Counted from the first letter of the stretch, positions 933 through 56,552 are shown. The stretch: 64,000 nucleotides of DNA from Bryobacterales bacterium (GCA_965261065.1 OZ253444.1:3526382-3590381); one strand, 5' to 3'. The notes: generated by a model not told the origin, from the sequence alone. Translations and numbers: made by a program.

Positions 933-968
933 ATGTCCCTCGGAATCGAGATTTCGGTTATGGAAAGG

Positions 969-1755: not shown

Positions 1756-4179
<2,424 letters not shown>

Positions 4180-7741: not shown

Positions 7742-7753
7742 GGGGGGGGGGGG
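7742..7753. repeat. G12 homopolymer in the divergent clpX/pta intergenic region
   Basis: Read directly: t-gggggggggggg-t. Confidence 0.9.
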
Positions 7754-7993
7754 TGCTGGAACGCGATGCCTTTTCGGCGCTTCGAAAGCCGTCGGCCGGT
7801 GAACACCCCGCGGCATGATTTCGGCATCAGTGCAACGGTGGTTGGTCGTTCTAGGCCGCTACCCGTTCTGTGATGTGAACAGGCGCCCGGTTGGGAAGCA
7901 ACGGCCCGGCTGGATTGCGGCAAGAACCCCGCTCGACGGCTTGCGCCGCGCGCCATTGGTCATTCCAGACAAGCCTTCGCTAAGATCGGTGAG

Positions 7994-8968
7994 ATGTCAG
8001 TGTTCCTCGATAGCGTCGTCGCCCGCGCTCGCACACTCAACAAGCGGGTCGTCTTCCCCGAGGGCGACGATGAACGCGTTCAGGCGGCGGCTGAGCGCCT
8101 GGCCCGGGACCACGTCCTCGCACCCATCCTGGTCAGCACGAACGACAACGCGCCGGCGGGCGTGACCATCCTCCATCCCAAGACCTACGCTCATGCCGAC
8201 CGCCACGTGCGTCTACTCCTCGAGCGCCGCCGGGCCAAGGGCATGACCGAGCGCGAGGCGCGAGACACAGCCGCGCAGCCACTGTACTTTGCCTCCCTGC
8301 TGCTGGCCCACGGAGAAGCCGACGGTCTCGTCGGCGGCGCCGGCAATACCACGGCCGAAACCGTGCGGGCGGCGATCTACTGTCTCGGCATCAAACCGCG
8401 GTACCGGTTGATGTCGAGCTTCATGATGCTTGTCCATCCCAACGAGAGCTTCGGCAGCCGCGGCGTGCTCGTGTTCGCGGACGCCGCTGTCGTACCCGAC
8501 CCGAATGCCGGACAGCTCGCCGACATTGCCATTGCTACTGCTGAGAACACGCGCAAGTTCCTCTCCGACCCGCCCCGCGTAGCGATGCTTTCGTTTTCGA
8601 CCAAAGGGAGCGCCCGCCACCCCATGGTCGAGAAGGTCGCCGAGGCCGTGCGGATCGTGCAACAGCGCGCGCCCGAGCTCACCATCGACGGAGAGTTGCA
8701 GGCCGACGCCGCGCTGGTCGTGTCGGTCGGACGGAGCAAAGCACCGGGTTCCCCAGTCGCAGGCCGCGCCAACGTGCTCATCTTTCCCGATCTCAATTCG
8801 GCCAATATCGGCTACAAGCTCGCTGAGCGTCTCGGCGGCGCGCAGTCGCTCGGCCCGTTCCTGCAGGGGCTCTCGAAACCCGCCAACGACCTATCCCGCG
8901 GCTGCTCGGCCGACGACATCTACTACGTCGCCGCCATCACGGCTCTTCAGGCTCAGAAAGAAGTGTAG
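7994..8968 (+). CDS. pta: Phosphate acetyltransferase
   Basis: 324 aa starting [29 protein letters not shown]..., with the PTA_PTB-type core ...[14 protein letters not shown]...SFSTKGSA...[10 protein letters not shown]. Confidence 0.85.
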
Positions 8969-9022
8969 CCGTGGCGCTGGCGTTCGAGCTTGTCTTCCTC
9001 TGCCTCAACGGGCCGAGGCTAC

Positions 9023-9062
9023 CCGCTGCCACGCTGAGTGAAACTAGTCCTCGTGGCAGCGG
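9023..9062. terminator. Perfect 11-bp-stem hairpin between convergent pta and a small minus-strand ORF
   Basis: CCGCTGCCACG (9023-9033) pairs with CGTGGCAGCGG (9052-9062) around an 18-nt loop. There is no U-tract, so terminator function is assumed from position only. Confidence 0.4.
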
Positions 9063-9150
9063 TCACCCGGCCTCATGGAGGGCTGATACACGCAGCGCCA
9101 GCCTGTTTCCAAGACTTGCCATTCGCGGCACGGCATACGTTCCTGGTTAC

Positions 9151-10380
9151 TAGTATATCGTTTCAATAAAACATACTCATACAGCAACGGTTCCTGCTAG
9201 GCTGAAGGCATGGCAGGAAAGTAGAAGCGTCTCAAGCTGCAACTCAGCCCCGCAGAGGTGCAGCATCTGGAGCGGCTGCGTGGTTCGCGGACGGCTCCGG
9301 TTCGGGAGGTGCAGAGAGCTGAGATTCTGTGGCGTTATCATTCCGGCGAGACCATTGCCGAGATTATGCGAACCGTGAAGATGACCCGCAAAAGCGTCGG
9401 CAAATGGATCGATCGAGCCCTCGCCATGGGCGTGGAAGCAGCGCTCAAGGATGCCTATCATCGTCCCCAGCAGCCCCTCATCACCGCCGATGCCAAGGCC
9501 TGGGTGGTGCATTTGGCCTGTAGCAAACCCAAGCAACTCGGTTACGCCGCCGAACTCTGGACCCGCAGTGCGCTGACTCTACACGTGCGCCGGCATGCCG
9601 TGGAAGCAGGCTATCCGGCGTTGGACCAAGCGGCTAAGGCGACCGTCCACCGGATCCTGGCCGAGCAACCTCTGCATCCAGAGAAGGTGAAGTACTACCT
9701 GGAGCGTCGCGATCCCGATTTTGAGTCCAAGATGCGGCAGGTGTTGCTGGTCTACCGCGAAGTGGCTTGGCAGAATGAAAGCCCTCGCGACGGCCTCTCG
9801 CCGGAGGTGATCACGGTTTCGGTAGACGAGAAGCCCGGCGTGCAAGCGATCGCCAACGTCGCGCCGGACCTGCCGCCGAAGCCTGGGCGGCATCCCAGCG
9901 TGGCTCGCGATTACGAGTACAAACGTCTAGGAACTTGCTCGATTCTGGCGGCGCTGGACTTGCATAGCGGTCGGGTGACGGCGCGGGTGGAGCGGCGTCA
10001 CCGCAGTCGGGAATTCATCTTGCTGCTCCAGGATCTGGACCAATTTTACCCGGACGAGTGCACGATCCGATTGATCTTGGACAATCATTCCTCGCACATA
10101 TCGAAGGAGACGAAAGCCTACTTGGCGACGCGTCCGAACCGCTTCAAATATGTGCATACGCCCACCCACTGGTCCTGGCTCAACATAGTCGAGACGCTGT
10201 TTGGCAAGATGGCGCGCACATTCTTAAAGCGAATACGAGTCGAGTCCTGGGCGGAGCTTCGGGAACGAATCCTGAAAGGAATCGCGGAGATCAACGCCGC
10301 TCCAGTCGTTCACCGCTGGAGGAAGTTCGAGTCGCTTGAGGTCACCTAGAGTGGGTATGTTTTAGTGAAACTATATACTA
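9151..10380 (+). mobile_element. IS630-family element, type A (my label), copy 1
   Basis: The 1226-bp body (9153-10378) is flanked by TA on both sides. It has ~30-bp imperfect terminal inverted repeats (GTATATCGTTTCAATAAAACATACTCA / complement of TGGGTATGTTTTAGTGAAACTATATAC). A near-identical copy lies at 28149-29378. Confidence 0.9.
9258..10349 (+). CDS. IS630-family DDE transposase
   Basis: 363 aa counted from GTG 9258, with an HTH N-terminus and DDE contexts VSVDEKPG, LILDNHSSH and SWLNIVETLF. An upstream in-frame ATG (9210) is separated from the ORF by TAG at 9222-9224. Confidence 0.9.
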   Translation: MQHLERLRGSRTAPVREVQRAEILWRYHSGETIAEIMRTVKMTRKSVGKWIDRALAMGVEAALKDAYHRPQQPLITADAKAWVVHLACSKPKQLGYAAELWTRSALTLHVRRHAVEAGYPALDQAAKATVHRILAEQPLHPEKVKYYLERRDPDFESKMRQVLLVYREVAWQNESPRDGLSPEVITVSVDEKPGVQAIANVAPDLPPKPGRHPSVARDYEYKRLGTCSILAALDLHSGRVTARVERRHRSREFILLLQDLDQFYPDECTIRLILDNHSSHISKETKAYLATRPNRFKYVHTPTHWSWLNIVETLFGKMARTFLKRIRVESWAELRERILKGIAEINAAPVVHRWRKFESLEVT

Positions 10381-14882: not shown

Positions 14883-16248
14883 AACCGGGCACATGGGTAA
14901 CACATGATGCCAAGCACATAGGTAACACTTTGAGGCATAGAACATTTCTGGGAGGGAATGCTTTATGCCGTGGCAGGAGACCTGTGTGCGAGACGAGAGA
15001 ACCCATTTTATCGTGGACTGGGAAAGAGACGAGGAGTCGATGGCCGAGCTGTGCCGGCGCTACTCGGTGAGCCGCAAGACCGGCTACAAATGGCTGCAGC
15101 GCTACCAGCAGCAGAGCTGGGAAGGTTTGCAGGACCACTCCCGGGCGCCGCAACGCCATCCCGGTCAGACCGCGGCCGCGATCGAGCAAGAGATTCTCGC
15201 TCTGCGGGTGCAGCACAGTCGCTGAGGTGCGGTCACCTTGAGGGCGCGGCTGCAGCGAAGGCAGCCCGACGTGGCATGGCCGGCGGTGAGCACGATCGGA
15301 AATCTGCTGCGACGACACGGTCTGAGCGTGCCCCGACGACGCCGGCCCCGCGCCGCACCGACCCCGCTGCCGCTGACGCCAGGCAAGCAGCCCAACCAGG
15401 TTTGGTGCGCCGACTTCAAAGGCTGGTTTCGCACCCAAGACGGCCGGCGCTGCGATCCCTTAACGATCTCGGACGCGGCCAGCCGCTACCTGTTGCGGTG
15501 CCCGGCGGTGACGAAACCGGACGGGGACCATGTTCGGCCGTTGTTCGAGGCGACGTTTCGAGAGTTTGGACTGCCGCGGGTGATGCGCACCGACAACGGG
15601 CCGCCGTTTGCGACCCTGGCGGTGCACGGGCTGGGGCGGCTGGCAGTGTGGTGGATCAAGTTGGGGATCTGTCCCGAGCGGATCGAGCCGGGACATCCGG
15701 AACAGAACGGGCGGCATGAGCGGATGCACCGTACGCTGAAGCAAGAGACCGCCGCGCCGCCAGCGGCGAATCTGCGAGCGCAGCAACGGGCGTTTGATGG
15801 CTTTCGCAGCGACTACAACGAGGAGCGACCGCACCAGGGACTGGAGTTGCGAACCCCTGGTGAGTGTTATCACGGCGCGGCGCGGGCGTATCCGTCGCTG
15901 GTGGACGAGCCGGAGTATGCGGCGCCGATGCAGGTGCGGCGCGTGATGGATGGGCGGATTCGCTGGCGGCGTCAACGAGTGTTCGTCGGCAAGGGACTCA
16001 ACGGGGAGCGGGTCGGGGTGGAGGAGATCGAGGAGGGCGTGTGGCGAGTGTGGTTTTCCTTTTATGAGTTGGGAGTATTCGAGGAACGAGAGCGGCGGTT
16101 GCGCCCGAGCAAGGGCCCAGCGGCGGGCCCTTCGTCCGGGGGTGGGACTTGACTCTGGTCGCCCTCCGGGCTCCCTGCGTCAAGCCCCACCCCGGACGAA
16201 AAGTGTTACCTATGTGCTTGGCATAAAGTGTTACCTATGACCCGGTCA
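14883..16248 (+). mobile_element. IS481-family insertion sequence
   Basis: ~48-bp imperfect terminal inverted repeats at 14883-14930 and 16201-16248 (..CCGGGCACATGGGTAACAC...ATGCCAAGCACATAGGTAACACTT) enclose an HTH plus rve-type ORF. Confidence 0.85.
14965..16152 (+). pseudogene. IS481-family transposase with one in-frame TGA
   Basis: ORFs 14965-15225 and 15238-16152 are in the same frame, separated by TGA at 15226-15228 (..LRVQHSR*GAVTLRARL..). DDE contexts are WCADFK, MRTDNGPPF and HPEQNGRHERMHRTLK. Confidence 0.85.
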
Positions 16249-27112: not shown

Positions 27113-28147
27113 ATGAGCGCCGTTAGGGAAGCGCTGCATAAGGCCGCGCGCCGCGCCGATTTAAGCGAGCCGGAAGCGCTCGCGGTGATGAACGAAATCC
27201 TCTCCGGCGAGTCCACCCCGACACTGATCGGCGCGCTACTGGTCGCGCTCAGCATGAAGGGCGAGACGGTTGACGAGGTCGTCGGTTTTGCCCGCGCCAT
27301 GCGCTCGCAGGCGGCGAAAATCCCTTGCAAGACGGCGGCTTCCGAGCTGGTCGATACCTGTGGTACCGGCGGCGATGGCTCGCAATCATTCAATATCTCG
27401 ACCGTCAGCGCCTTCGTCGTCGCCGGGGCGGGGGCGCATGTCGCCAAGCACGGCAACCGCTCGATCTCGAGCCGCTGCGGCAGCGCGGATGTCTTGGAAG
27501 CGACGGGGGTGAACGTCGGTCTGACGCCTGAGCAGATGGCCCGCTCGATTGACGAGGTCGGCATCGGGTTCCTTTTCGCTCCGGCGATTCACACCGCCAT
27601 GAAGCATGCCGGGCCGGTGAGGGCGGAGTTGAAGATGCGGACCGTCTTCAACGTGCTTGGGCCGCTGACGAATCCGACCGGGGCTTCGGCCCAGGTGTTG
27701 GGCGTGTTTGAAGATCGTTTGACGCCGATGCTTGCGGAAGCGCTGGCTCACCTGGGCACGGCGCGCGCGTTTGTGGTCCACGGCAGCGACGGGTTGGACG
27801 AGATCACTACGACCGGGGCCACCCGAGTGGCGGAGGTCTCAGGCGGAGCGGTTAGCGAGAGAACGTTGACACCCAATGACTTCGGTCTGCCTCGCGCCGC
27901 GCCGCACGACTTAGCCGGGGGTGGCCGCGAGGAGAACGCCGCGATCCTGCGCGCGATTCTTGACGGGACGAGAGGGCCCAAACGCGACATCGTGCTGGCC
28001 AACGCATCCGCCGCGCTGGTTGCGGCGGGCCGGGCGGGCGACTTTCGCGAAGGTGTTGGGCTGGCCGGGGCGTCCATCGACGGAGGCAAGGCGGCGGAGA
28101 AGCTCGACGAGTTGGCGCGCTTCACGCAGCAGTTCTCGTCGGACTAA
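27113..28147 (+). CDS. trpD: Anthranilate phosphoribosyltransferase
   Basis: 344 aa with DTCGTGGDGSQSFNIST and KHGNRSISS. Confidence 0.9.
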   Translation: MSAVREALHKAARRADLSEPEALAVMNEILSGESTPTLIGALLVALSMKGETVDEVVGFARAMRSQAAKIPCKTAASELVDTCGTGGDGSQSFNISTVSAFVVAGAGAHVAKHGNRSISSRCGSADVLEATGVNVGLTPEQMARSIDEVGIGFLFAPAIHTAMKHAGPVRAELKMRTVFNVLGPLTNPTGASAQVLGVFEDRLTPMLAEALAHLGTARAFVVHGSDGLDEITTTGATRVAEVSGGAVSERTLTPNDFGLPRAAPHDLAGGGREENAAILRAILDGTRGPKRDIVLANASAALVAAGRAGDFREGVGLAGASIDGGKAAEKLDELARFTQQFSSD

Positions 28148-28148
28148 C

Positions 28149-29378
28149 TAGTATATAGTTTCACTAAAACATACCCACTCTAGGTGACCTCAAGCGACTC
28201 GAACTTCCTCCAGCGGTGAACGACTGGAGCGGCGTTGATCTCCGCGATTCCTTTCAGGATTCGTTCCCGAAGCTCCGCCCAGGACTCGACTCGTATTCGC
28301 TTTAAGAATGTGCGCGCCATCTTGCCAAACAGCGTCTCGACTATGTTGAGCCAGGACCAGTGGGTGGGCGTATGCACATATTTGAAGCGGTTCGGACGCG
28401 TCGCCAAGTAGGCTTTCGTCTCCTTCGATATGTGCGAGGAATGATTGTCCAAGATCAATCGGATCGTGCACTCGTCCGGGTAAAATTGGTCCAGATCCTG
28501 GAGCAGCAAGATGAATTCCCGACTGCGGTGACGCCGCTCCACCCGCGCCGTCACCCGACCGCTATGCAAGTCCAGCGCCGCCAGAATCGAGCAAGTTCCT
28601 AGACGTTTGTACTCGTAATCGCGAGCCACGCTGGGATGCCGCCCAGGCTTCGGCGGCAGGTCCGGCGCGACGTTGGCGATCGCTTGCACGCCGGGCTTCT
28701 CGTCTACCGAAACCGTGATCACCTCCGGCGAGAGGCCGTCGCGAGGGCTTTCATTCTGCCAAGCCACTTCGCGGTAGACCAGCAACACCTGCCGCATCTT
28801 GGACTCAAAATCGGGATCGCGACGCTCCAGGTAGTACTTCACCTTCTCTGGATGCAGAGGTTGCTCGGCCAGGATCCGGTGGACGGTCGCCTTAGCCGCT
28901 TGGTCCAACGCCGGATAGCCTGCTTCCACGGCATGCCGGCGCACGTGTAGAGCCAGCGCACTGCGGGTCCAGAGTTCGGCGGCGTAACCGAGTTGCTTGG
29001 GTTTGCTACAGGCCAAATGCACCACCCAGGCCTTGGCATCGGCGGTGATGAGGGGCTGCTGGGGACGATGATAGGCATCCTTGAGCGCTGCTTCCACGCC
29101 CATGGCGAGGGCTCGATCGATCCATTTGCCGACGCTTTTGCGGGTCATCTTCACGGTTCGCATAATCTCGGCAATGGTCTCGCCGGAATGATAACGCCAC
29201 AGAATCTCAGCCCTCTGCACCTCCCGAACCGGAGCCGTCCGCGAACCACGCAGCCGCTCCAGATGCTGCACCTCTGCGGGGCTGAGTTGCAGCTTGAGAC
29301 GCTTCTACTTTCCTGCCATGCCTTCAGTCTAGCAGGAACCGTTGCTGTATGAGTATGTTTTATTGAAACGCTATACTA
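28149..29378 (-). mobile_element. IS630-family element, type A, copy 2 (inverted relative to copy 1)
   Basis: The 1226-bp body (28151-29376) is flanked by TA and differs from copy 1 by a few substitutions. Its left TA lies 2 nt after the trpD stop. Confidence 0.9.
28180..29271 (-). CDS. IS630-family DDE transposase (copy 2)
   Basis: 363 aa, identical to the copy 1 protein except Thr/Ala in RSAL[T/A]LHV. The same upstream ATG (29319) and in-frame TAG (29305-29307) are present. Confidence 0.9.
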   Translation of the reverse strand: MQHLERLRGSRTAPVREVQRAEILWRYHSGETIAEIMRTVKMTRKSVGKWIDRALAMGVEAALKDAYHRPQQPLITADAKAWVVHLACSKPKQLGYAAELWTRSALALHVRRHAVEAGYPALDQAAKATVHRILAEQPLHPEKVKYYLERRDPDFESKMRQVLLVYREVAWQNESPRDGLSPEVITVSVDEKPGVQAIANVAPDLPPKPGRHPSVARDYEYKRLGTCSILAALDLHSGRVTARVERRHRSREFILLLQDLDQFYPDECTIRLILDNHSSHISKETKAYLATRPNRFKYVHTPTHWSWLNIVETLFGKMARTFLKRIRVESWAELRERILKGIAEINAAPVVHRWRKFESLEVT

Positions 29379-31340
29379 GGCCGCGCCGCGACGCTGATCT
29401 GCGCGCTAGAACTCGAACGCCAGCAAGATGTGACGAAGCTGGGCGAGTGGCCGTTCGAAATCGGACTGTGGGTCGGCAGAGCGGCGACGCCGAACCGCAT
29501 GGGCTCGAAAGATGACAACTACCCGGACACCGCCAGGCGTAAGACGATTTCCTTTTGGAACGACAGCAGCAAGCCGGCACCGATCCCGTTGGAGGAGTGC
29601 CCGTGGTGCGGCACCAAATTCCAGCGTGAGTCGTTCCGATTGTCTGCCAATGGCAAGGCGAATCGCGACAACCCAACGGACCTGACCGTCGCCTGCCTGA
29701 ACAGGAAATGCGACTTCACGCGGGACCGCCCGCTGCCGATTCTGGCTGTGGATGAACCGATCTATCGGCGACTGCCTTGCTTCCTGATCGCGACAGTAGA
29801 CAAGTTCGCTGCCCTCCCCTGGAAGGGAGAAACCGGCAAGTTCTTCGGACGCGCGGATCGCTACGACCGGCAAGGGTTCTACGGTCCGTGCGAGCCCGGC
29901 AGAGGAACGTTGCTACCTGAGGGCAGGCTGGCGCCTCCGGAACTCATCATTCAAGACGAGTTGCACTTGATTTCGGGTCCGCTCGGAACGATGGCCGGAT
30001 TGTATGAAACCGCGCTGGACGCGCTCTCGGTCATCGAGAAGGATGGTCACAAGATACGGCCGAAGATTGTGGCTTCGACGGCGACGGTCCGGCGCGCCGA
30101 GACACAGATTCGGGCTCTGTTCGATCGACGCACAGTGGATATCTTTCCGCCGCCCGGTCCCGATAGATGCGACTCGTTCTTTGCGGAGACCCTTTCACCG
30201 GAGCAGAGCAACGCCCGGCTGTATCTGGGCGTCGCGGCGCAAGGACGCAGCCCGAAGGTTGTAATGTTGCGTGTGTATCTGGCGCTGCTCGGCGCCGGAG
30301 AAAGATGGTACACGGCCCCGAAAAAGAAGGCCGACCCGGAAAATCCCGCCGACCCGTATATGACGCTCGTCGGCTATTTCAACGCTTTGCGTGAGTTGGG
30401 CGGAGCCAGAAGACTCATCGAGGACGAGATCCGGAACCGTCTCGCGGGTTATGCGTCCCGCCGACGCGCCGGTGAAGAAGAGGGATTGTTCGTTAATCGC
30501 AAGATCGAGTATGAACCCGTCGAGCTGACCAGTCGAATCGATACCGGGCGGGTGGCCGAGGCGAAGCAGCGACTGGCGCTCGCTTTCTCCGAAGACAAGA
30601 AGGTGGATGTCGCCATCGCAACGAACATGATCTCGGTCGGTCTCGACATTGTACGGCTGGGCCTGATGGTGGTCTTTGGTCAGCCGAAGACCAGCTCGGA
30701 ATACATCCAGGCTACGAGCCGCGTTGGCCGCGATCCCGAGCGGCCCGGTCTCGTCGTGACAATCCTGAACGTCCACAAGCCGCGTGACCGTTCGCACTAC
30801 GAGCGCTTCGCGGCCTATCACGAGACGTTCTACCGGAGCGTTGAGGCGACCAGCGTCACGCCGTTTTCGCCCCGTGCGCTCGACAAGGGTTTGGCGGCGA
30901 CGCTGGTTGCGATGGCGCGGCACGGGTTCGACGTTTTGACGCCGCCGCGCGGTGCGGCCGAGATTCTGAAGCACAGGACCGAACTGGACTCGGTGGTCGA
31001 TTCCTTGAGTCAACGTGCGTACGGTCACAGCCTTGGCTCCGACGCGGAGAGAGATCGCCTGAAGCAGAGGGTGCGGCAACGAGCGTTGGATCTGCTGGAT
31101 GACTGGTCGAAGGTAGCTCAGGAGCAGCAAAATGTCGGCGCGGGCTTGCAGTACAACGCCGCCGAGGTTGGAGCAGCGGCCCCATTGCTTTACGACTATC
31201 TGAGTCCAGACGTTAAGAACCTGCCACCTACCCATTGGAAGATGAAGTTTCGCGCGAATCGCTCCCTTCGAGACGTCGAAGCGGCGGTGAACCTCTGGGT
31301 GAGGACGATGGACAACGTGGATCTCGAGGAGGACCAGTAG
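29379..31340 (+). pseudogene. drmA: DISARM DrmA-like SF2 helicase, 5'-truncated at the IS630 boundary
   Basis: The frame is open from the IS junction (LGRAATLICALELERQQDVTKLGEW...). Motif II is IIQDELHLISGP, helicase-C motifs are IATNMISVGLDI and QATSRVGRD, and there is a Cys4 ribbon (CPWCG...CLNRKC). Motif I and an RBS-linked start are missing. Confidence 0.7.
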
Positions 31341-32325
31341 GATGCCCCGGAAGAAAGAGAAGCGTCCTCACGGTGAGATCCGCCAGAGTCAGATACTTAC
31401 GACGTTTGGTCCGGGTTCGATGACGGATCTGCCCAAGCACTCGGTGTTGATTGGCGGACTCGACTACTGGCTTGGAAGCCGGGATGCGATCAGCGAACCA
31501 CGGTTGGCCCGGAAGCTGGCAAAAATTCTTGAAGTGCCGACTTTGCGTCTTGAGACGCCGCCCCCCGCTGATGATGATCCGACAGCCCCGCCGAGTGGGG
31601 TTCGGGTTTTTCAGTTCCCGGAATGGTTTGTTACCCAGGATGTGGAGAGCAAGCAGGCGGACTCGGCTACGCGATCTCGCCTTCTCGTGCACCGCCGGGC
31701 GCTGACTCGCGGAAAGTATCGTGATCGCGATAAGAAAGCACGTCCGGTTGTGCCAGTTCGCTTCGTGAGAGCGTGTCATGGGGGCCACATCGGCGACATC
31801 GACTGGTATGTATTCGTGCATGAAGGCCAGTCAGAGTGCAAGTCCCTGCGCCGACAACTCTACCTCGATGAGCGAGGCACCAGCGGCGATCTTGCGGAGG
31901 TCTTCATCCGATGCGAATGCGGCAAGGCGGATAGGAGCATCGCCCAGGCAGCAAAGTTGGGGGATCGGCCGTTAGGATTATGCGACGGCGCGAGGCCCTG
32001 GCTTGGCCCTGCGATGAAGGAGAAATGCAACGATCAGAACCGATTGCTCGTCCGGACGGCCTCGAACGCCTATTTCCCCCAAACGTTGAGCGTGATCTCG
32101 CTGCCGGACCGGAACGAAGCCGTTCAGCAAGCTGTGAGCGCGGTTTGGGACTTCTTAGAGGCAGCCGAGAGTCTCGAAAACGTTCAGAGAGAACGCAAGA
32201 AAGCCAAGGTTCAGCAGGGCCTGGATGGTATTACCGACGAGGAAGCATGGTCGGAGATTGAAGCGCGGCGTGGCGTATCTGACGGCGAAGAGAAGTCGGT
32301 GAAGGCAGCCGAACTGGAAACCCTA

Positions 32326-33489
32326 GTGTAGTGCGTCAAGCAGATTGCACCTTATGCAGGGCGGCACGTCCTCGCTTGACTTTCTCGAGGATGTCGGAGG
32401 CGGTCGCTGTCCAGATGAAGGGCGTGGGATGCTCGTTGTGCTGGGCGATGTAGTCGTCAATGGCGGCGACGAGCTCGTCCACGCTGCGAAACACGCCGCG
32501 GCGCAGGCGCTTGACGGTGAGATCGCGAAAGAATCGCTCGACCATGTTCAGCCACGACGCCGAGGTCGGGGTGAAATGAATGTGGAAGCGCGGGTGACGA
32601 TCGAGCCAACGCTTCACAGCGGCATGCTTGTGGGTGGCATAGTTGTCCACGATGAGATGAAGCTGTTTGTCCTTGGGAGTGCGGCGGTCAATTAAGCGCA
32701 GGAAGCGCAACCATTCCTGGTGGCTGTGTCGGGGCATGCACTCGGCGATCACGCTGCCGTCAAGAGTGTTGAGCGCCGCAAACAGGGTGGTCGTGCCGTT
32801 GCGCTTGTAATCGTGGGTCATCGTTTGGCCGCGTCCCTTTTTGAGCGGCAGGCCGGGTTGGGTGCGATCGAGGGCTTGGATTTGGGACTTCTCATCGAGC
32901 GAGAGAACCAGAGCATGCTCAGGCGGATTGAGATAGAGTCCGACGATGTCGTCGAGTTTCTCGGCGAAACGCGGGTCATTGCTGAGCTTGAAGGTCTTGA
33001 CGCGGTGGGGCTTGAGGCCATGGGCGCGCCAAATCCGTCCCACGGTGGAAGCGCTGACGCCGGCCGCGGCGGCCATGGTGCGGCGGCTCCAGTGTGTGGC
33101 GTTGGACGGTTTCTCGCGGGTGGTCTTGTGGATGATCTGCTGTACTTTCTGCTTCGAGACGGCAGGTGTACGACCGGGCCGTGGGGCGTCTTTTGCAATG
33201 CCGGCGATGCCGCTTTCGAGAAAGCGCGTGCGCCAGCGGGCCACCAACTGCCGCGAGACACCGAGCTGTGCGGCGATCTGCTTATTCTCGAGACCGTGGG
33301 CGGCCAGCAGGACAATCCTGGCTCGCAGGGCGAGACGAACGGCGACTTGGCGGCCGCGCGCGTAGCGGTCCAACTGCTTGCATTGCGCTGTGTTCAAAGT
33401 TACTGGTTGTGCTCTTCGCATCCCATGCCTCCTGTTAATAGAGACGATGGGAAGCCAATGTAAGTTACAGTATTTATGGTGCACTACAC
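32326..33489 (-). mobile_element. IS630-family element, type B (my label), tandem copy 1
   Basis: 1164 bp with terminal GTGTAGTGC inverted repeats, flanked by TA (32324-25 and 33490-91). Confidence 0.85.
32336..33421 (-). CDS. IS630-family DDE transposase (type B)
   Basis: 361 aa from ATG 33421 ([17 protein letters not shown]...), with AGGAGG upstream. DDE contexts are [17 protein letters not shown] and [10 protein letters not shown]. The longer listed ORF reads through into the neighbouring copy. Confidence 0.9.
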
Positions 33490-33491
33490 TA

Positions 33492-34655
33492 GTGTAGTGC
33501 GTCAAGCAGATTGCACCTTATGCAGGGCGGCACGTCCGCGCTTGACTTTCTCGAGGATGTCGGAGGCGGTCGCTGTCCAGATGAAGGGCGTGGGATGCTC
33601 GTTGTGCTGGGCGATGTAGTCGTCAATGGCGGCGACGAGCTCGTCCACGCTGCGAAACACGCCGCGGCGCAGGCGCTTGACGGTGAGATCGCGAAAGAAT
33701 CGCTCGACCATGTTCAGCCACGACGCCGAGGTCGGGGTGAAATGAATGTGGAAGCGCGGGTGACGATCGAGCCAACGCTTCACAGCGGCATGCTTGTGGG
33801 TGGCATAGTTGTCCACGATGAGATGAAGCTGTTTGTCCTTGGGAGTGCGGCGGTCAATTAAGCGCAGGAAGCGCAACCATTCCTGGTGGCTGTGTCGGGG
33901 CATGCACTCGGCGATCACGCTGCCGTCAAGAGTGTTGAGCGCCGCAAACAGGGTGGTCGTGCCGTTGCGCTTGTAATCGTGGGTCATCGTTTGGCCGCGT
34001 CCCTTTTTGAGCGGCAGGCCGGGTTGGGTGCGATCGAGGGCTTGGATTTGGGACTTCTCATCGAGCGAGAGAACCAGAGCATGCTCAGGCGGATTGAGAT
34101 AGAGTCCGACGATGTCGTCGAGTTTCTCGGCGAAACGCGGGTCATTGCTGAGCTTGAAGGTCTTGACGCGGTGGGGCTTGAGGCCATGGGCGCGCCAAAT
34201 CCGTCCCACGGTGGAAGCGCTGACGCCGGCCGCGGCGGCCATGGTGCGGCGGCTCCAGTGGGTGGCGTTGGACGGTTTCTCGCGGGTGGTCTTGTGGATG
34301 ATCTGCTGTACGTTCTGCTTCGAGACGGCAGGTGTACGACCGGGCCGTGGGGCGTCTTTTGCAATGCCGGCGATGCCGCTTTCGAGAAAGCGCGTGCGCC
34401 AGCGGGCCACCAACTGCCGCGAGACACCGAGCTGTGCGGCGATCTGCTTATTATCGAGACCGTGGGCGGCCAGCAGGACAATCCTGGCTCGCAGGGCGAG
34501 ACGAACGGCGACTTGGCGGCCGCGCGCGTAGCGGTCCAACTGCTTGCATTGCGCTGTGTTCAAAGTTACTGGTTGTGCTCTTCGCATCCCATGCCTCCTG
34601 TTAATAGAGACGATGGGAAGCCAATATAAGTTACAGTATTTATGGTGCCCTACAC
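33492..34655 (-). mobile_element. IS630-family element, type B, tandem copy 2
   Basis: 1164 bp, head-to-tail with copy 1 and sharing the TA at 33490-91; the outer TA is at 34656-57. One inverted-repeat mismatch (GTGTAGGGC). Confidence 0.85.
33502..34587 (-). CDS. IS630-family DDE transposase (type B)
   Basis: 361 aa. It differs from the other copy at E/D (HGL[E/D]NKQ) and K/N (SKQ[K/N]VQQ). Confidence 0.9.
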
Positions 34656-35499
34656 TAGTGGCCGCGCGAGAGGAGATCGGTGAAGACCGGCCTGAGGGCG
34701 TTTTCTATGCGCGATCACTGCCTAGAGCCGCGTGGGACAGGCCTTGGATGGCGAGCATTGAGCGCGTCGTTCTTATCCATCGTTTGCGCGAGGTTGTGGC
34801 GTCGGTCGGTTTCACCCGATTTGAATCGGCCTCCGCCGATTTCGAGGGTGAGCTGGATATGGGTGTCCGCCGGGCATCGTTGGCACGCGATATATCGTGG
34901 CTGCCCGCAGTTGAGAATAAGGGAGAAGGCTTCTTCATTCAGTTCAAGAAGTCAGCAATTGACGAGTGGCTGCTAGAGCCTGGCGTCCAGTCGAGAACTG
35001 CCGCCTTGAATCGGGGTTTTCAGGCCTGGAGTCGGGAGCACTCTGGGGCCGGCCGGAAGTTTCCCCGTCCGGAGCACATCATGCTCCACTCGGTGTCGCA
35101 TCTTTTACTCACCGCGGTTTCCTTGCAGTGTGGGTATCCGGCCAGCTCAATTCGGGAACGAGTGTATGCCATACCGAGTATCGGATACGGGATTCTTCTG
35201 TACACAGGCAGTTCGGATGCTGAAGGTACGTTGGGCGGGTTGGTGGAGGTAGGCCGCAACATTCACGAATCCCTGCGTGACGCTCTGGAGATGGCCCAGC
35301 TGTGTTCCAATGACCCGGTCTGCGCTCAGCATGAGCCCGAGAGCGGGCATGAGCACCGCTACCTACATGGCACCGCTTGTCATGGATGCGTGCTCGTTGC
35401 GGAAACCAGTTGCGAGCAGCAGAACGATTTCCTTGATCGCGCGCTTGTAGTCTGGACGGTTGAGGCGGAGGGCGCAGAGTTCTTCCCGGAGATCAAACC

Positions 35500-36291
35500 T
35501 TGAGCGAAGAACTCTTCAATCTCCCACCCGCGGACCTACGTGTACTCGCATCGGCGGTCCGCTCCGGGAGACTAACCGTGCCGTCTTCCGGTGCCGGGGT
35601 CGAAAGATTCGTGGGGCGCGAAGGCTCCGACGAGGTGTCCAAAGCGCTGGGGGATCTCCAATCTGCCGGCTGCTCACAGGAAGGTGTCGCTCGCTGTTTA
35701 GAAATGCTGGCCGCCGGAGCCGAGACACAGCGCGGACTGGACGAGGCCGTGCAAGTCGTGACCACGGGGCCCGAGATGGCAGCCGTTGCGAACCGGGACA
35801 CGATGGTTGTTGTGCAGGAGATGTTTCGGCGGGCCGAGCGGAGCGTCTTGGTCTCCGGGCATACGGTTTTCGAGGGCCGAAAGGTGTTTCGGGAGCTTGC
35901 CGCCAGAACGCTCGAACTCCCTGATCTGCAAGTCCGGATGTTCCTTGACATCCGCAGGAAGGCTGGCGACACGTCGCTTGACTCGGAGATCGTTTGGCGC
36001 TTCGTCGATCACTTTCGACGCGCGCACTGGCCCGAGGGCTGTCCGCTGCCGCAGATCTACTACGATCCTCGGTCATTGGCTTCGGATCGGCAAAAGCAGG
36101 CAGTCTTGCACGCGAAGTGCGTTGTCGCGGACGATTCCGAGCTGTTTGTGTCCTCGGCCAACTTTACCGAGGCGGCGCAGGTGCGGAACATCGAGCTTGG
36201 GCTGCTTCTGCGGTCGTCCGCACTTGCCTCCCAGGTAGGCAACTTCTTCGACTCGCTCGTCGAATCCGGACACTGCCAGCGGGCAAATTGA
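35500..36291 (+). CDS. drmC: DISARM DrmC-like PLD/HKD-domain protein
   Basis: 263 aa with HKD motif LHAKCVVADDSELFVSSANFTEAAQVRNIELG. Its TTG start overlaps the drmB stop (TTGA). Confidence 0.7.
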   Translation: MSEELFNLPPADLRVLASAVRSGRLTVPSSGAGVERFVGREGSDEVSKALGDLQSAGCSQEGVARCLEMLAAGAETQRGLDEAVQVVTTGPEMAAVANRDTMVVVQEMFRRAERSVLVSGHTVFEGRKVFRELAARTLELPDLQVRMFLDIRRKAGDTSLDSEIVWRFVDHFRRAHWPEGCPLPQIYYDPRSLASDRQKQAVLHAKCVVADDSELFVSSANFTEAAQVRNIELGLLLRSSALASQVGNFFDSLVESGHCQRAN

Positions 36292-36706
36292 AAAGTGGCT
36301 CCTTCCGCTATCTGTTACTCCACCAGGCTAGAAGTTGCCCGGTTGGAGACGGGGCGTCATACAACCGGACGGTTGCATGCCGGCATGTCCTGCAGAGCAG
36401 TAGTTGGTCACAGGCGACTTGGTCCACACTTGTTGCTGGCACGCAGGCGGTGGCGGAGGGCCCGCGGAGATCAGCCCAGGACAGCGGTTTCCTGTCTCGC
36501 CGACGGTGACTCGCGGGCGGGGCGACCGCGTGAACCCGGCAGGCAGAACCCGTGCGCACCCTGAACCCACATTACGGGCACCGGCTTCCTCAAGAACTCG
36601 GCCCTAAGGGCGTAACTTGCTGAAACCTAGTCACTTAGCGCGAGACACAGTTTTTTGGAGGAGAGTCCGGAAAGTGGGTGATTGTGGCAGGGGCTGGTCG
36701 GAGTCC

Positions 36707-37476
36707 TCAAGCCGTTTGTTTGGCCGCTTCGCCATGCTCTGCTCTCTGGATAGTTTTGGCAGCCCTACGACGAGCCGTTGAGGTGCGGTAGGCCCTGCGG
36801 ACTGTGGTGGCCCCAACGCCAAGCTTCGATGCAATCTGGGACCAGCTCATGTCCTCCTGATCGCGCAGCCGCACTACCTCGTCTCGGTCGAACACCATCC
36901 TCGGTCGGCCAATTCGTTTCCCCAACGCCAGTGCTCGCTCGTGCCCCGCTTTGATCGCGTCGACACGCTCCTCGTTCTCCATTTCGGCAAACCATGCTTG
37001 AATCGCCCAGAGCAGCTTGCCCATGGTAGAGCTGATCGCGCCGGTCTGAGACTTCACCGGCACCACGGTCACTTCTGCGTCCGCCAGTTCGTAGACGGTC
37101 GAGATGACCTCACGCATGTCGCGGCCGAGACGTGAGACCTTCCAGACCAGCAAGCGATCGAACTTACGGAGCGCGGCATCCCTCTTCATTCGCTCGAACA
37201 TCGGACGAGATCGGGCGCCCTTGCGACCAGACTTCCCTTGCTCGACGTAGATGTACTGATCAGCGAGACGATCAGCGACGACCTGGTTGACGCGATAGAC
37301 CGTTCGTGGAGGATCTGGGCCCCGGACTTCTTCCGCGACGATGCAGTAGGAGAGATCGTCAGGACCTGACCCCAGTCACGAGGCGACCCGTCCTTCTCAG
37401 CTACTGCAAGCAAGTCCTGGAACTGGTTCTCGCTAGTTTGTCGGTCACTGGAGACCCGGAAATACAAAGCATCCAC
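36707..37476 (-). pseudogene. Serine recombinase/resolvase, frameshifted
   Basis: The N-terminal ORF (37186-37476) begins MDALYFRVSSDRQTSENQ, which contains the catalytic Ser. The remainder sits in another frame (36707-37201): FDRLLVWKVSRLGRD... and HTH MSWSQIASKLGVGATTVRRAY. Confidence 0.75.
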
Positions 37477-37645
37477 ATTGCACCTCGCAGTTGATGCGAG
37501 GCGGTGGTGCCATCAAGGTTCTGGTCTGGAGGGAAACGATCGGTCCCACGCTTTGGTGGGGCAAACTCCGACGAGCCTTCGATAGGTTTTTGGAACCAAA
37601 TGGAACCAATCGAGGGAAGGTGCTGGCTGTAAGTTGTTGAAAAGA

Positions 37646-37721
37646 TGGTGGCCAGGGACGGAATTGAACCGCCGACGCCGGCCTTTTCAGGGCCGCGCTC
37701 TACCGACTGAGCTACCTGGCC
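37646..37721 (-). tRNA. tRNA-Phe (GAA)
   Basis: The minus strand reads GGCCAGGTAGCTCAGTCGGTAGAGCGCGGCCCTGAAAAGGCCGGCGTCGGCGGTTCAATTCCGTCCCTGGCCACCA. It has a 7-bp acceptor stem, anticodon loop CTGAAAA and an encoded CCA. Confidence 0.9.
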
Positions 37722-47474: not shown

Positions 47475-49831
47475 CGACCCGCGGCGCATGGCTTTGCTGG
47501 CTTGCCCTTCTAGCGGCGACGCTAGTGAGGGCGCAGCCGATCATTACGCCCACGCCCGACATGCCCGACGAGATCGAAGAGGTGGGCGACTACACCATCT
47601 CGAACTCGTTCGAAGTCGGCTACCGCATGAGCAATGTGAGCGGCAACCATGACGTCTACCGCAGCAGCATCAACTTCGGCAACGGCGTGCGGTTGTTCGA
47701 AGGGCAGTTACGCATCAACTCGAAGGAAGGCAAGGGGACGCTGATCGATAACCTGTCGTTCCACACCGTCGGACAAGGCGAGGACCCCTACCAGTTCACA
47801 CGGTTCGAGATCGAGAAGAACGGCTGGTTCCGCTACGACATGCAGCTTCGCGTCAACCGTTTTTTCAACCGGCTGCCGTCGCTATGGAGCGGCGAGCGCG
47901 GGCAGTGTGTGCTGACCGGGACATGGGTAACACTTTATGCCAAGCACATAGGTAACACTTTTTCGGGCCGGCTGATGCGAAGTCTGCGCTAACTCTCGTG
48001 GAATCAGGGCACTGGCAAAGCTTTCTTCGGCCGAGGCTAGGCTGGGCCATCGCCTTGGTAAGCGGAGGAAACCAAAGGAGTTCGGCCCCGGTTCTGTCAA
48101 GGCCTCGCGCCCGCGAGCCGACAGGGGAGCCTTGACAGGTTCGGGGGCGAACTCCAGCCTTGAATAGCAAGGCGATGGTCCATGTGTTACCTATGTGCTT
48201 GGCATAAAGTGTTACCCATGTGCCCGGTCAATACCGTGGAGCGAGCGGACGTTCCAGAACCACGACCTGCGGCTATTCCCCGATTCGCGGTTCGAGATCC
48301 TGCTCGGCTATGACCGCAATTCCCAAACCGGCCCGGGTTTCAGGTCCGAAGGCATCTCGCGCGACTTTGGGGCCTTCCGCAACGAGAACTTCCTGCGGCT
48401 GACCCGCGACCTGCGCCGGCAGAACAACCAGTACCGCGCGGGCTTCGATACGCGGGTGGCTGGGCTGGCGATTACGTTCATGCAGGCTTTCGACAACTAC
48501 AAAGAGGATACGCTCTACGGAGACGGCTCGCTATCTCCGTCGCTCTCGCCAAACGTGCAGCCGGTCGAGAGCTTGCAGCGCAACGAGCCGATCCATGGCA
48601 ACACGCCGGTCACGTCCGTCGCCATCCGGACAGAGAAGGAGCACAAGATCGGCTTCCAGGGCCGCTATGTGTACGCCAGTGGCAACCGCAACTTTCTGCT
48701 TTCCGAAGACATCACGGCGATCAATTCCGACCTGAATCTGTCCAGCCTCCGGCACACCTTCATCATGGGCGACGCCCGGCGCAAGCAAGGTAGCGGCGAC
48801 TTCACCGTCGCGTTCATGCCGACCCACCGCTGGACGCTCAGCAACACGACCTCGGTCAACAATACCCGCATCAGCGGCAATTCAGCGTTTCTCGAAGTCA
48901 CCGCCTCGACCTCGCAGTTTCAGGAGTTCGAGCACCTAGGCATTCGCCACATCTCGAACGCCAGCGAGGTCAACTTCCGCGCGCACCCAAAGCTCGGGGT
49001 GTACGGCGCGTATCGTTTCTCGCGGCGGCGCATCCAGACGCGCGAGAGCTTCCACTTCCCCGACTTCGATTTCGAAGTCGATCTTTTCGAGCAAGAGAGC
49101 GACATCAACTCGAGTGTCGGCGGGTTTCGCTGGCGTCCCCGGCGAGAGTTGCGGGTATCGTTTGACGCGGAGTTCGGCGAGGCGGATCTGCCGTTTACGC
49201 CGCGCAGCGAGCGGAAGTTTCATTCGGAAACCGTTCGCGTGCAGTGGCGCAAGAACGGGTTCTTGCTCGGTGGGAACTTCAAGAGCCGCGAAAACGACAA
49301 TTCCGCGACGCTGATCACACACAGCTCTGTCGGGCGGCACTACGGCTTCAACAGCTCGTGGGTGAATCCAGACGGCAGGCTTACCCTCGACGGCGGCTAC
49401 ACCAAGGTCGAACTCGACACGGCCTCAGGCATCTTCAACTTCTTCCCCGAAGGCGAGACACCGGCGGCAAGCCGCGCCTTCTACACGATGAACCTGCACA
49501 ACGTGTATTTCAGCACTCGCATTCAACCGCGTGACCGGCTGACTCTGTACCTTGCCTACAACCTGTCGAAAGATACGGGTGATGGGCGCGGGCAGCCGAG
49601 CTTTGGGCTGGCTTGGAGCCAACCTACTCGAATTTTAGTTTCGACGGAACGAACTTCTTCAACAGCTTCCCGCTCACCTATCAGTCGCCCTCAGCGCGCG
49701 TGTCGGTGACGCTGCACGAACACCTTTCGTGGAATCTCGGCTGGCAGTTTTACAACTACGGTGAGCGCTTCGTCGGCGAGCAGAATTATCACGCCCATGT
49801 GAGCTACTCCAGCCTGCGTTGGAGTTTCTAG
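47471..49831 (+). pseudogene. Outer-membrane beta-barrel partner of the decahaem cytochrome (MtrB/PioB-like), broken by a MITE and a frameshift
   Basis: The ATG overlaps the cytochrome stop (ATGA) and is followed by signal peptide MTTRGAWLCWLALLAATLVRA. The MITE interrupts the gene at 47913-48230. The frame changes near 49580-49615. The last frame ends ...YSSLRWSF, an OMP-type C-terminal Phe. Confidence 0.6.
47913..48230. mobile_element. 318-bp MITE with the terminal inverted repeats of the IS481 element
   Basis: The ends TGACCGGGACATGGGTAACACTTTATGCCAAGCACATAGGTAACACTT and the complement at 48183-48230 match the IS481 inverted repeats at 14883-14930/16201-16248. There is no coding capacity. 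Confidence 0.85.
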
Positions 49832-54018: not shown

Positions 54019-55521
54019 CGAGAAAGACGGATTCAAAATGGGGCGCGAGATGGACTTTGATCCTTTCTACGGGAGCAAGGGCGAGAAACCATCGGCCCAA
54101 ACGGCCGAAGTGCCGACACGGCCGGCGACGGCAGGATGAGTTGAGCGGTACGAGGTAAGCGGCACGAGTTCGCAAGGTTAGAGGAAGGGAAGCGACAGCG
54201 AAGGACATGCCCAGACCGGGAGTTCACAACGACTGCGACCCCGGGCCGGCCGCTAGCGAGGCCGACTGTTAGCGAGCAGCGTCGGAAAGACCGAACTTCA
54301 AACAGCACTGCGTCGGGCAGACGCCGAAGAGAGTGCGGATGGAGGCCCGGTTTGAAGGCGTCCCGAAACTGAAGTTTCCTGGGGCTCCTTGCCAGTTGAC
54401 AAAGCGAATCTCCTCATGGAAACCCGGCGGTGGAGCCGCAAGGCGGGAACCTCGGGTACCGACCCTCTTTCTTAATGGGAGCCCTGAAGATGGAAAAGCC
54501 GCGACGCACCATCACCACGCCCTCCAGCCGCGCAGCTTGAAATCAAGATCCGTGATGCGGTACCCGATGTCCCATGGCTTGCGCGCCTGGCCAGTGGCGC
54601 AGGTCCCTAGACCTGCCGTGTCGTTACTCTTACCGACACACGTCGACCGGAAGGTCGACGCCCACACGAAACCCCGAGCATCGACATGAGTGTCGATGCG
54701 GCAGACGTAGGCGTCCGCGCCACACCGCCAACCCGCTCGACTAGCGGCCGAACAAAGGAGGTCTACCCTGCTCGCGCCCCCCCCGGTTGATGCCAACGAA
54801 GGAGCGTACGTTGTCCAACGCTCGCCGGCCCAACGCTGCCTGCGACAGCTCAGCGGCATGCCGTTGCCCTCTGCCGCCCCACCGCACGCCCCCAACGCTT
54901 CATCGATCGGCGGAACCACGGCTCACCGATCAACTGCCGCCGATCTCGGCGAGCAGGCGCTCGGCTTCGTCGAGGGCGGGCTGGTAGCAATGCGGCGGGC
55001 CGTCGCACTCAGCGCGTTCCTTGGCGGTTTCGGCGTGGCTGCGGGCGGAGGTGAGGTCGCCGGCGTCGAGGTCGAGCCGGGCCAGGAAGTTGTGGATGTC
55101 CGCCTGCTGCAGGCGGTACCCGCAGCGGTCGGCGATGCGCCGGGCTTCTTCGGCGTCACGGCGGGCGGAGCCGGCCGCGACTTGGGTGCGATGCCAGCGG
55201 GCCCAGGCGAGCAGGATGTCGGCCTCGACTTCGACTAGGTTGATCCGGCGGCAACGGGCAAGCGCTTCGGTGAGGTGCTTTTCGGCCTTGGCCAGATGGC
55301 GGTCGCGCTGCCGGGGTTCGTGTGACGCCAGGGCCTCCCGCGCCCAGCCGAGCAGCCATTCGGCCCGGATGATGTCGCGCTCAACGCTCTCGACATCGGC
55401 GAGTTCGCGCGACTGGCGGGCGGCTTCGAGGGCGGCTTGAGGATCGCCCATGAACAGGGAGCGCAGAGCTTGGTAGACCTCATCGGAGCAGAGGCCCTGT
55501 TTATGGTCAGCTTTTCTCCAA

Positions 55522-56552
55522 GCTTGGTATCCACTTGACTCAGGTGACCCCAAGATGTAGTGTAGGGCCTGGTGGAGGATTACCCGCGCGACCAACTCGA
55601 ATTCGAGTCTCGCTTTGCGAGCGAGGAGGCTTGCCGCGACTATCTGTTCGCCTTGCGCTGGCCAGAGGGTTTCCGCTGTCCAAGGTGTGGGCATGAGCGC
55701 GCTTGGCCGGTGCGCAAAGTGTGGTTCGAATGCGCTCGCTGCGGGCGGCAAACCTCCGTCACCGCCGGCACGATCTTTCAAGACACACGCAAGCCGCTGC
55801 GGCTGTGGTTCCGGGCGATGTGGACCATCACCACGCAGAAGAATGGGGCCAGCGCCCTGGGTCTACAGCGCGTTCTGGGACTGGGCAGTTACCAAACCGC
55901 CTGGCCTTGGATGCACAAGCTGAGGCGAGCGATGGTGCGCCCGGGGCGGGAGCGATTGACGGGCCTCGTCGAGGTCGATGAGACCTACTGGGGCGCTGAA
56001 GAAGAAGGGGTAATCGGCCGGCAGACCGAGCGTAAAGCGTTGATTGCAGTCGCCGCGGAAGAGAGAGGCACCGGGCTGGGGCGCATCCGCATGCAGCGCG
56101 TTCAGAACGCCTCGGCGGCCAGTTTGATGCCCTTCGTCGAGGAGTCGGTCGAGCCGGGCAGCGTGGTTGTTACCGACAACTGGTCGGGCTACGATCCGCT
56201 CAAGAAGAAGGACTACCAGCGTCGTATCATCTCGATTAACAACCGCCGCGAGCAGGCCTCGCAGCTACTGCCGAGGGTGCACTTGGCGATCTCGCTACTC
56301 AAGCGCTGGATGCTGGGCACGCATCAGGGGGCGGTCAGCCACGAGCATCTGGACTACTATCTCGACGAGTTCGTGTTCCGCTTCAATCGGCGCAGATCAC
56401 GCAGTCGGGGCAAGCTCTTCTACCGCCTTGTGCAGCAGGCCATGGCGGTGGAGCCGACGCCGTACCGCTCGATCGTCGCCGATTGGGACGCTAAGACGCT
56501 GTGAGCCCAACTACAAGATGTTGGGGTCACCTGAGTCAAGTGGATACCCGGC
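55522..56552 (+). mobile_element. IS1595-family insertion sequence
   Basis: 1031 bp with 32-bp inverted repeats GC(T/C)(T/G)GGTATCCACTTGACTCAGGTGACCCCAA. An 8-bp direct target duplication TTCTCCAA sits at 55514-55521 and 56553-56560. Confidence 0.9.
55572..56504 (+). CDS. IS1595-family (ISXO2-like) transposase
   Basis: 310 aa with an N-terminal zinc ribbon (FRCPRCGH...FECARCGRQ) and DDE contexts VEVDETYWG and VVTDNWSGY. Confidence 0.9.
   Translation: MEDYPRDQLEFESRFASEEACRDYLFALRWPEGFRCPRCGHERAWPVRKVWFECARCGRQTSVTAGTIFQDTRKPLRLWFRAMWTITTQKNGASALGLQRVLGLGSYQTAWPWMHKLRRAMVRPGRERLTGLVEVDETYWGAEEEGVIGRQTERKALIAVAAEERGTGLGRIRMQRVQNASAASLMPFVEESVEPGSVVVTDNWSGYDPLKKKDYQRRIISINNRREQASQLLPRVHLAISLLKRWMLGTHQGAVSHEHLDYYLDEFVFRFNRRRSRSRGKLFYRLVQQAMAVEPTPYRSIVADWDAKTL

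Follow-up and report, generated by a model that had tools for sequence, protein, structure and literature searches.

A class 1 DISARM defence locus, probably inactivated and dismembered by insertion sequences, beside a tRNA-Phe gene of an uncultured Bryobacterales bacterium

Within a 64,000-nucleotide stretch of DNA from an uncultured Bryobacterales bacterium (GCA_965261065.1 OZ253444.1:3526382-3590381; this whole stretch is hereafter called the window), positions 29379-36291 very probably represent the 3' half of a class 1 DISARM defence locus that has been inactivated and dismembered by insertion sequence (IS) elements. An earlier note on this DNA, made from the sequence alone, had proposed a remnant drmA-drmB-drmC cluster of the DISARM type lodged beside a tRNA-Phe gene. 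The identity of the three genes, the intact form of the locus in related contigs and the whereabouts of its missing front half are considered here in turn, together with the tRNA-Phe site at which the cluster lies.

Identity and class of the cluster

The DISARM core consists of the helicase DrmA (pfam00271), the DUF1998 protein DrmB (pfam09369) and the PLD protein DrmC (pfam13091) (bioRxiv 10.1101/2021.12.28.474362), and the window carries all three as adjacent, co-directional genes. Open reading frames (ORFs) were predicted at 29430-31340, 31342-32331, 34544-35503 and 35500-36291, all on the plus strand. The first belongs to a 3' fragment of drmA (29379-31340, 653 codons), corresponding to residues 484-1137 of intact homologues. 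The next two are pieces of drmB, for which an IS-free reconstruction gives codons 1-328 at 31342-32325 and, in a frame that is continuous after IS removal, codons 329-609 with the DUF1998/MZB zinc-binding domain at 34658-35503. The last is an intact drmC (35500-36291), encoding a PLD/HKD protein of 263 amino acids. The drmA stop codon ends at 31340 and the drmB ATG follows at 31342 after a 1-nt gap, while the drmB stop codon (35501-35503) and the TTG start of drmC at 35500 share a TTGA overlap of 4 nt. The ORF calls agree with the earlier note on the coordinates of three co-directional, coupled genes, and every motif quoted there (IIQDELHLISGP, QATSRVGRD, CPWC...CLNRKC, HSVSHLL, GSSDAEGTLGGLVE, CSNDPVC, CHGC...SCE and LHAKCVVADDSELFVSSANFTEAA) was recovered in the translations.

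In a PADLOC profile search the cluster proteins matched DrmA, DrmB and DrmC with E-values of 1.9e-242, 1.6e-75 and 1.3e-81, respectively. Ten DrmA models ranked at the top, Dpd models scored merely E ~1e-4 to 1e-3, and no cluster protein matched a DruE, Druantia or ARMADA-type profile. Against the NCBIfam model DISARM_DrmAS, the drmA fragment aligned to model positions 524-1165 of 1165 at 767.6 bits, which is under the full-length equivalog cutoff of 950 for the sole reason that half of the protein is absent. The drmB reconstruction scored 569.8 bits against the NCBIfam model DrmB_fam (cutoff 240; residues 10-593), and drmC scored 162.1 bits against the NCBIfam equivalog NF038319 DISARM_DrmC_I (cutoff 133), which marks it as the class-I type. 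Pfam domains were likewise found, namely Helicase_C in drmA, MZB (PF09369, DUF1998) at residues 475-573 of the drmB reconstruction and PLDc_2 in drmC. Among proteins of known structure, the drmA fragment aligned with residues 658-1255 of Serratia DrmA (PDB 7S9V chain A, E=6.7e-116) and the drmB reconstruction with Serratia DrmB over its full length (7S9V chain B, E=1.8e-100). The proposed drmA-drmB-drmC assignment is borne out by these searches: for the IS-free reconstruction PADLOC and NCBIfam return DISARM proteins and Pfam the three core domains, DrmA and DrmB match the characterised Serratia structure, and the best profile matches are DrmA, DrmB and DrmC and not another helicase-DUF1998 family. 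On sequence grounds it is thus confirmed that positions 29379-36291 encode part of drmA, an interrupted drmB and drmC.

The nearest full-length DrmA homologues, at 89-91% amino-acid identity, come from two contigs, L001 and L002, where the genes are ordered as SNF2 helicase (1083 amino acids), methylase (1327 amino acids), DrmA (1092-1137 amino acids), DrmB (607 amino acids) and DrmC (263 amino acids). Their core genes are coupled as in the window, with a 1-nt gap and a 4-nt overlap, and drmC has the same length. The SNF2 protein scored 1108 bits against NF038317 DISARM_DrmD (equivalog cutoff 610), and the methylase is of the MmeI/Eco57I-like N6-adenine type. At the DNA level these contigs are 79-83% identical to the window across 29380-36291, starting exactly at the end of the IS element (IS A) that adjoins drmA. 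The uninterrupted locus and methylase, which the earlier note had advised looking for in sister genomes, are therefore present in these ~82%-identical relatives as drmD-drmMI-drmA-drmB-drmC, an order that constitutes the class 1 architecture (bioRxiv 10.1101/2021.12.28.474362). DrmD and DrmMI precede the core triplet in L001 and L002 and not in the window, where tblastn found no similarity to drmD, drmMI or the drmA 5' sequence anywhere in the 64 kb. Judged by its intact relatives, the locus is assigned to class 1 DISARM.

In L001 (1-23414) the intact class 1 DISARM lies within a multi-system defence island, although at 6x coverage gene prediction breaks its methylase into four pieces. Other cargo of this island includes HigB/HTH and Gp49/HI1420 toxin-antitoxin pairs, a CBASS operon (patatin, E2, SMODS), a pair of HTH and M78 peptidase genes, and a resolvase.

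Insertion sequences and the fate of the front half

Towards its 5' side the helicase frame stays open as far as 29379, the base that directly follows the TA bordering IS A, and in tblastn with intact homologues (1137 amino acids) the alignment to the window starts at homologue residue 484. The fragment retains motif II (DELH), the Cys4 element, RecA2 and motif VI, and is devoid of the N-terminal region and of Walker A; a full-length DrmA with both RecA domains and a score above the equivalog cutoff is hence not encoded. In the intact homologue P0002, Walker A (FFPTGGGKTEAYLG, GGGKT) lies ~30 residues upstream of the break. In an intact system DrmA, an SF2 helicase, and DrmB form an ATP-dependent complex that is autoinhibited by a trigger loop and activated by DNA with a 5' single-stranded overhang, self DNA is marked by DrmMI methylation, and DrmC is a PLD nuclease candidate that is dispensable even there (PMC9142583; bioRxiv 10.1101/2021.12.28.474362). 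Both ATP hydrolysis and formation of the DrmA-DrmB heterodimer are essential for DISARM, and the trigger loop of Serratia DrmA comprises residues 176-232 in its N-terminal part (PMC9142583). By its predicted content the DrmA fragment cannot be a working motor, and since Walker A and the N-terminal region are missing and drmB is interrupted, a functional DrmAB motor would not be expected from the window.

IS A is an IS630-family element of 1226 bp on the minus strand (28151-29376), with a transposase at 28180-29271 (Pfam DDE_3, HTH_32 and HTH_23), 30-nt terminal inverted repeats at 28148-28177 and 29350-29379, and a TA on either side (28149-28150 and 29377-29378). On the left it abuts the stop codon of trpD (27113-28147) and on the right the drmA fragment. 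The TA flanks alone are indecisive as to whether IS A joined an existing junction or made it, because elements of the IS630 type are always flanked by TA. This was decided by the reciprocal junction alone. When the first 485 residues of P0002 were used as a query, a 437-residue fragment (P0121) was retrieved, which two sister assemblies encode. Sister assemblies that are 99.8-99.9% identical to the window share its trpD-IS A-drmA3' junction, and the complementary drmA5'-IS A junction occurs on the same contig in one case and in the same sample in another.

The gene order in one of these, L089, is drmD, drmMI, drmA codons 1-42, an IS B remnant (IS B being the element that also interrupts drmB in the window), drmA codons 54-484, IS A and a set of unrelated genes designated X. 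Its drmD is broken by elements of the ISAZ013 and IS1595 types and its drmMI by a DDE_Tnp_1 element. In both L088 and L089, drmA codons 54-484 end in '...GACCAAC TA' ('...CTCGACCAAC TA') and the left end of IS A follows, while in the window the right end of IS A is followed by 'TA GGCCGCGCC' ('TA GGCCGCGCCGCG'). Intact homologues read GACCAACTGAGCCGCGCC (CTCGACCAACTGAGCCGCGCCGCC) across the break. The two halves thus point to a single insertion of IS A at a CTAG site, with duplication of the TA, as the break in drmA. On the other side of the two IS A copies, the trpD flank ('...CTAAC TA', window 28140-28150) and the X flank ('TA GTTAG...', L089 12507-12520) join as a perfect 12-bp palindrome, CTAACTAGTTAG, as a former second IS A between trpD and X would predict. 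This suggests that trpD and X were formerly contiguous and offered a favoured target of the IS630 type.

A sequence of three steps accounts for these junctions. IS A first inserted in drmA at the CTAG of codon 484, as the junctions show, and this copy would then have recombined with a second IS A located just downstream of trpD. The products would be trpD-IS A-drmA3'-drmB-drmC-tRNA-Phe, as in the window, and drmD-drmMI-drmA5'-IS A-X elsewhere; the latter is seen in the sister assemblies and for the window's own genome we infer it, most simply as an inversion. Later, in the lineage of the window, drmB received two tandem copies of IS B. IS recombination, and not a simple deletion, probably split off the front half. 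A further copy of IS A is present in the window at 9153-10378 (1226 bp, 99.7% identical, inverted and TA-flanked), and its flanks showed no DISARM sequence when DrmD, DrmMI and the N-terminal part of DrmA were compared with the window by tblastn.

The strongest competitor is a simple IS-mediated deletion that removed drmD, drmMI and drmA up to codon 483, for example between direct repeats of IS A, after which the front half would be gone. The 64-kb window indeed holds no 5' half, and the position of IS A exactly at the break with TA on both sides is compatible with either scenario. However, sisters of 99.8-99.9% identity hold not only the window's junction but also its exact complement, a reciprocal product that would not remain after a deletion, and we regard this course of events as unlikely.

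Some points do weigh against a dismembered locus as described above. The assemblies compared are long-read metagenomes, in which single-base frameshifts (such as that of the recombinase described below) may be sequencing errors. The 5' half was found solely in sister metagenome assemblies, outside the window's 64 kb, and may have been lost from the window's own genome. A metagenome scan with TrpD gave loci of ≤75% identity, and no such locus has the X genes downstream. Furthermore, in L088, which lies on the same contig as the sister assembly L084, the series IS B-drmA(54-484)-IS A-X follows window position 50081, across which the window is collinear with a more distant relative, L004. A single inversion is inadequate for the L084/L088 arrangement, and further rearrangement or a mis-join is possible. 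In L088 (8817-12510), drmA codons 54-484 are enclosed by a full IS B on one side and IS A on the other, and only ~12 kb separates them from tRNA-Phe, which lies to their left. Such a join either requires that IS B mediated another rearrangement or is a product of mis-assembly.

In drmB the interruption consists of two IS630-family elements of 1164 bp on the minus strand, IS B copy 1 (32326-33489), inserted at a CTAG target within the gene, and copy 2 (33492-34655) in tandem with it. The layout is TA-IS-TA-IS-TA with a single TA (33490-33491) between the copies, which have 6 differences. Copy 2 has a transposase at 33502-34587 (Pfam DDE_3 and HTH) and the ORF of copy 1 (32336-33505) is near-identical. 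In the window drmB is therefore not contiguous but carries ~2.3 kb of tandem IS after codon 328; excision of the IS B pair and one TA yields a continuous drmB of 609 codons ending at 35503. It was also observed that within 32324-34657 the IS B ends together with the flanking TA each recreate a C-TA-G site. Such a recreated site may explain how a second, slightly different IS B copy landed exactly at the junction to give a tandem dimer.

The split drmA is common to all assemblies of the window lineage, while drmB occurs in three states. It is intact (609 amino acids) in L003 (sample ERZ25068966, 21x); it carries the tandem IS B pair in the window, in L084 (ERZ25068966, a different contig, 22x) and in L085 (sample ERZ25071132); and it carries a 253-bp miniature inverted-repeat transposable element (MITE) in L086 (7566-7818, 2x coverage; equivalent to window 35010-35018). 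This MITE has terminal inverted repeats of ~22 nt and a near-identical 9-bp flanking repeat, ATCTGGGTT, where the window reads ATCGGGGTT. The IS B insertion is absent from both L003 and L086, and the MITE insertion in L086 is independent of it. As the drmA split is shared and the drmB states vary, drmA was split first and drmB has been struck independently since. The view that only drmC is intact consequently applies to the window and does not extend to the 99.8%-identical sister contig L003 with its uninterrupted drmB. Repeated hits of this kind in drmB are the pattern expected of DNA that is no longer under selection.

A residual role for what is left, such as a PLD nuclease serving other defence systems from an intact drmC (or drmB and drmC), is in our judgement improbable. 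It is favoured by the full length and intact HKD motif of drmC in every haplotype seen and by the suggestion that the DrmC-like PLD nuclease of one system can be exchanged for that of another (Bravo et al., PMC9142583). Against it, DrmC is dispensable in intact DISARM (PMC9142583; bioRxiv 10.1101/2021.12.28.474362), and at 792 bp drmC may merely have escaped insertion so far. Nor do the substitutions between the window and L003 show a signal of selection. The two differ at 44 positions in 21 kb, which may be assembly noise, and drmC has 1 synonymous and 1 non-synonymous change; changes are few and housekeeping genes are equally rich in non-synonymous ones. Across co-existing haplotypes at least 7 IS insertions and one MITE fall within ~13 kb of DISARM DNA. 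We see a small chance that the locus is a preferred or selected target of mobile elements, inactivated stepwise and adaptively, with drmC or drmB-drmC kept for a residual role. If true, adaptive inactivation would, for example, end self-targeting in a cell that has lost its methylase, or make the cell receptive to gene transfer.

The earlier note had left open whether the cluster was a dying DISARM or the tail of a methylase-less variant. The first is supported by drmA being cut at the end of an IS, and the second is opposed by relatives that carry drmD and the methylase upstream. A functional, naturally methylase-less DISARM made of drmA, drmB and drmC alone has a precedent of sorts, as DrmABC of the Serratia class 1 system continues to protect against phage M13 when the methylases are missing, and their loss does not cause autoimmunity in Serratia (bioRxiv 10.1101/2021.12.28.474362). 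However, the drmA frame runs into the IS A end at the position of residue 484, leaving no Walker A for the essential ATP hydrolysis (PMC9142583), 2.3 kb of IS DNA divides drmB, and the nearest relatives have drmD and drmMI directly upstream. A methylase-less variant is contradicted by the truncation of drmA at the end of IS A, and is in our judgement very improbable. Hardly any weight is given to another helicase-DUF1998 system (Druantia DruE, ARMADA, Dpd or MrfA/YprA repair helicases), for although all share a YprA-type helicase with DUF1998, which Pfam now calls the 'MrfA Zn-binding domain', here DUF1998 has its own protein followed by a PLD gene, DISARM-specific profiles match with the DrmB_fam and DrmC_I cutoffs passed, the PDB matches are DrmA and DrmB, DruE is unmatched, and in ARMADA, according to the literature, the partners of the YprA-like helicase are a BrxHII-like helicase and a PglX-like methylase and not DrmB/DrmC.

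The tRNA-Phe site and other mobile elements

The dismembered DISARM locus adjoins a tRNA-Phe (GAA) gene on the minus strand at 37646-37721 (ARAGORN; Rfam tRNA 69.3 bits), so that the 3' end of the tRNA is directed into the cluster, as had been noted before. In L002 the intact DISARM ends ~1.4 kb from a tRNA-Phe, and L002 17387-17539 is 86% identical (blastn) to window 37569-37721, including the 77 bp directly 3' of the tRNA on the minus strand (37569-37645), which are thereby conserved beside an intact DISARM. In L074, a Bryobacterales metagenome-assembled genome with flanks of 94-97% identity (94% for DNA of the right flank), synteny with the window stops 31 bp past tRNA-Phe, and what follows the same tRNA-Phe (1-9746) is a tyrosine integrase at 8465-9595 together with cargo unrelated to that of the window. 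The content at the tRNA 3' end therefore differs among relatives, and the tRNA-Phe is a variable integration hotspot. The L074 cargo contains a transposase-like ORF resembling IS6 (judged by eye), an IS B remnant and a 253-bp MITE (6318-6568).

The proposal of a tRNA-associated island stands as regards the variable hotspot (L074, L002) and fails as regards a repeat of the tRNA 3' end and an integrase. A direct repeat of the tRNA-Phe 3' end, sought as the far border, was not found: a 25-nt query with up to 3 mismatches had no second copy in the window or L074, and the repeat was not among the direct repeats of L002. No integrase linked to the DISARM segment was found, the window having here solely a small serine recombinase of the resolvase/invertase type on the minus strand (36707-37476). 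The earlier note was right that a serine recombinase gene is present, but it is of the small resolvase type and, by three-frame translation and Pfam Resolvase, lies in two frames. Its N-terminal part with YFRVSSDRQ starts at 37476 and its C-terminal 164 codons span 37201-36707; the 164-residue ORF matches Pfam Resolvase at positions 52-144 only. In L086 (2x) a run of G near 37317 is longer by one base, which lets the recombinase read through to 256 amino acids. The gene is apparently frameshifted, and a homopolymer error is possible.

On the far side, the trpD boundary is best read, from its flanking sequences, as an IS-made junction and not an island border or attachment (att) site. Given an IS-made junction on this side, one would expect the true border at the far end to be upstream of drmD. 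A scan for an empty site with the gene to the right of tRNA-Phe brought up the hotspot relative L074 but no relative in which trpD adjoins tRNA-Phe.

Several further elements were recorded elsewhere in the window. An rve-type IS of ~1.34 kb at 14895-16236 has an ORF at 15238-16152 (Pfam rve, rve_3) and 34-nt inverted repeats. A MITE-like derivative of 329 bp at 47908-48236 has perfect terminal repeats that are the same as those of this IS, and it is missing at the corresponding site in L074 and L004. An IS1595-family element (Zn_ribbon_IS1595, DDE_Tnp_IS1595) lies at 55519-56552, and a 99.7% identical copy breaks drmD in the sister assembly L089 (2413-3511). The Rfam small RNA Acido-Lenti-1 was matched on the minus strand at 60869-60916 with 40.2 bits (gathering score 37), which fits an acidobacterial origin.

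Significance and comparison with known systems

The cluster is a known system, an ordinary dying defence locus recognisable with standard hidden Markov models, and not a new one. For annotation, the appropriate labels are drmA (partial), drmB (IS-interrupted) and drmC, all belonging to a class 1 DISARM that is defunct, and the locus has no place in a tally of active or of new methylase-less defence systems. It offers a small case of defence-system loss through an IS630-family insertion, IS-IS recombination and independent hits on drmB in co-existing haplotypes, and its trpD side illustrates how IS recombination can produce an artefact that looks like an island border. The locus does not alter the present view of DISARM.

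The closest characterised counterpart is the class 1 DISARM of Serratia sp. SCBI (PDB 7S9V/7S9W), which has the same core proteins, order and coupling as the window. The window differs from it in having a drmA without its first ~483 codons, an interrupted drmB and no drmD or drmMI. The Serratia host is a proteobacterium, whereas the window derives from an uncultured member of the Bryobacterales (Acidobacteriota), and the intact homologues of the window have a short form of DrmA of ~1130 amino acids in contrast to the 1325 amino acids of Serratia. Class 2 DISARM (drmE-drmA-drmB-drmC-drmMII, Bacillus paralicheniformis) shares the triplet of helicase, DUF1998 and PLD proteins. However, it uses DrmE and a 5-methylcytosine methylase, whereas the intact relatives of the window have DrmD and an adenine methylase, and DrmC of the window matches the class-I model.

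Like tRNA-associated islands, the cluster abuts the 3' end of a tRNA-Phe gene and its cargo varies among relatives; unlike them, it has no direct repeat or linked integrase and its trpD end is IS-made. ARMADA, Druantia (DruE), Dpd and MrfA/YprA share with DISARM a YprA-family SF2 helicase and a DUF1998 zinc-binding module. In MrfA the helicase and DUF1998 are in one polypeptide, and such a fusion has also been generally described for Druantia, ARMADA and related families. In the window, by contrast, DUF1998 resides on a separate DrmB of 609 amino acids followed by a PLD gene, and the partner genes differ from those of the other systems.

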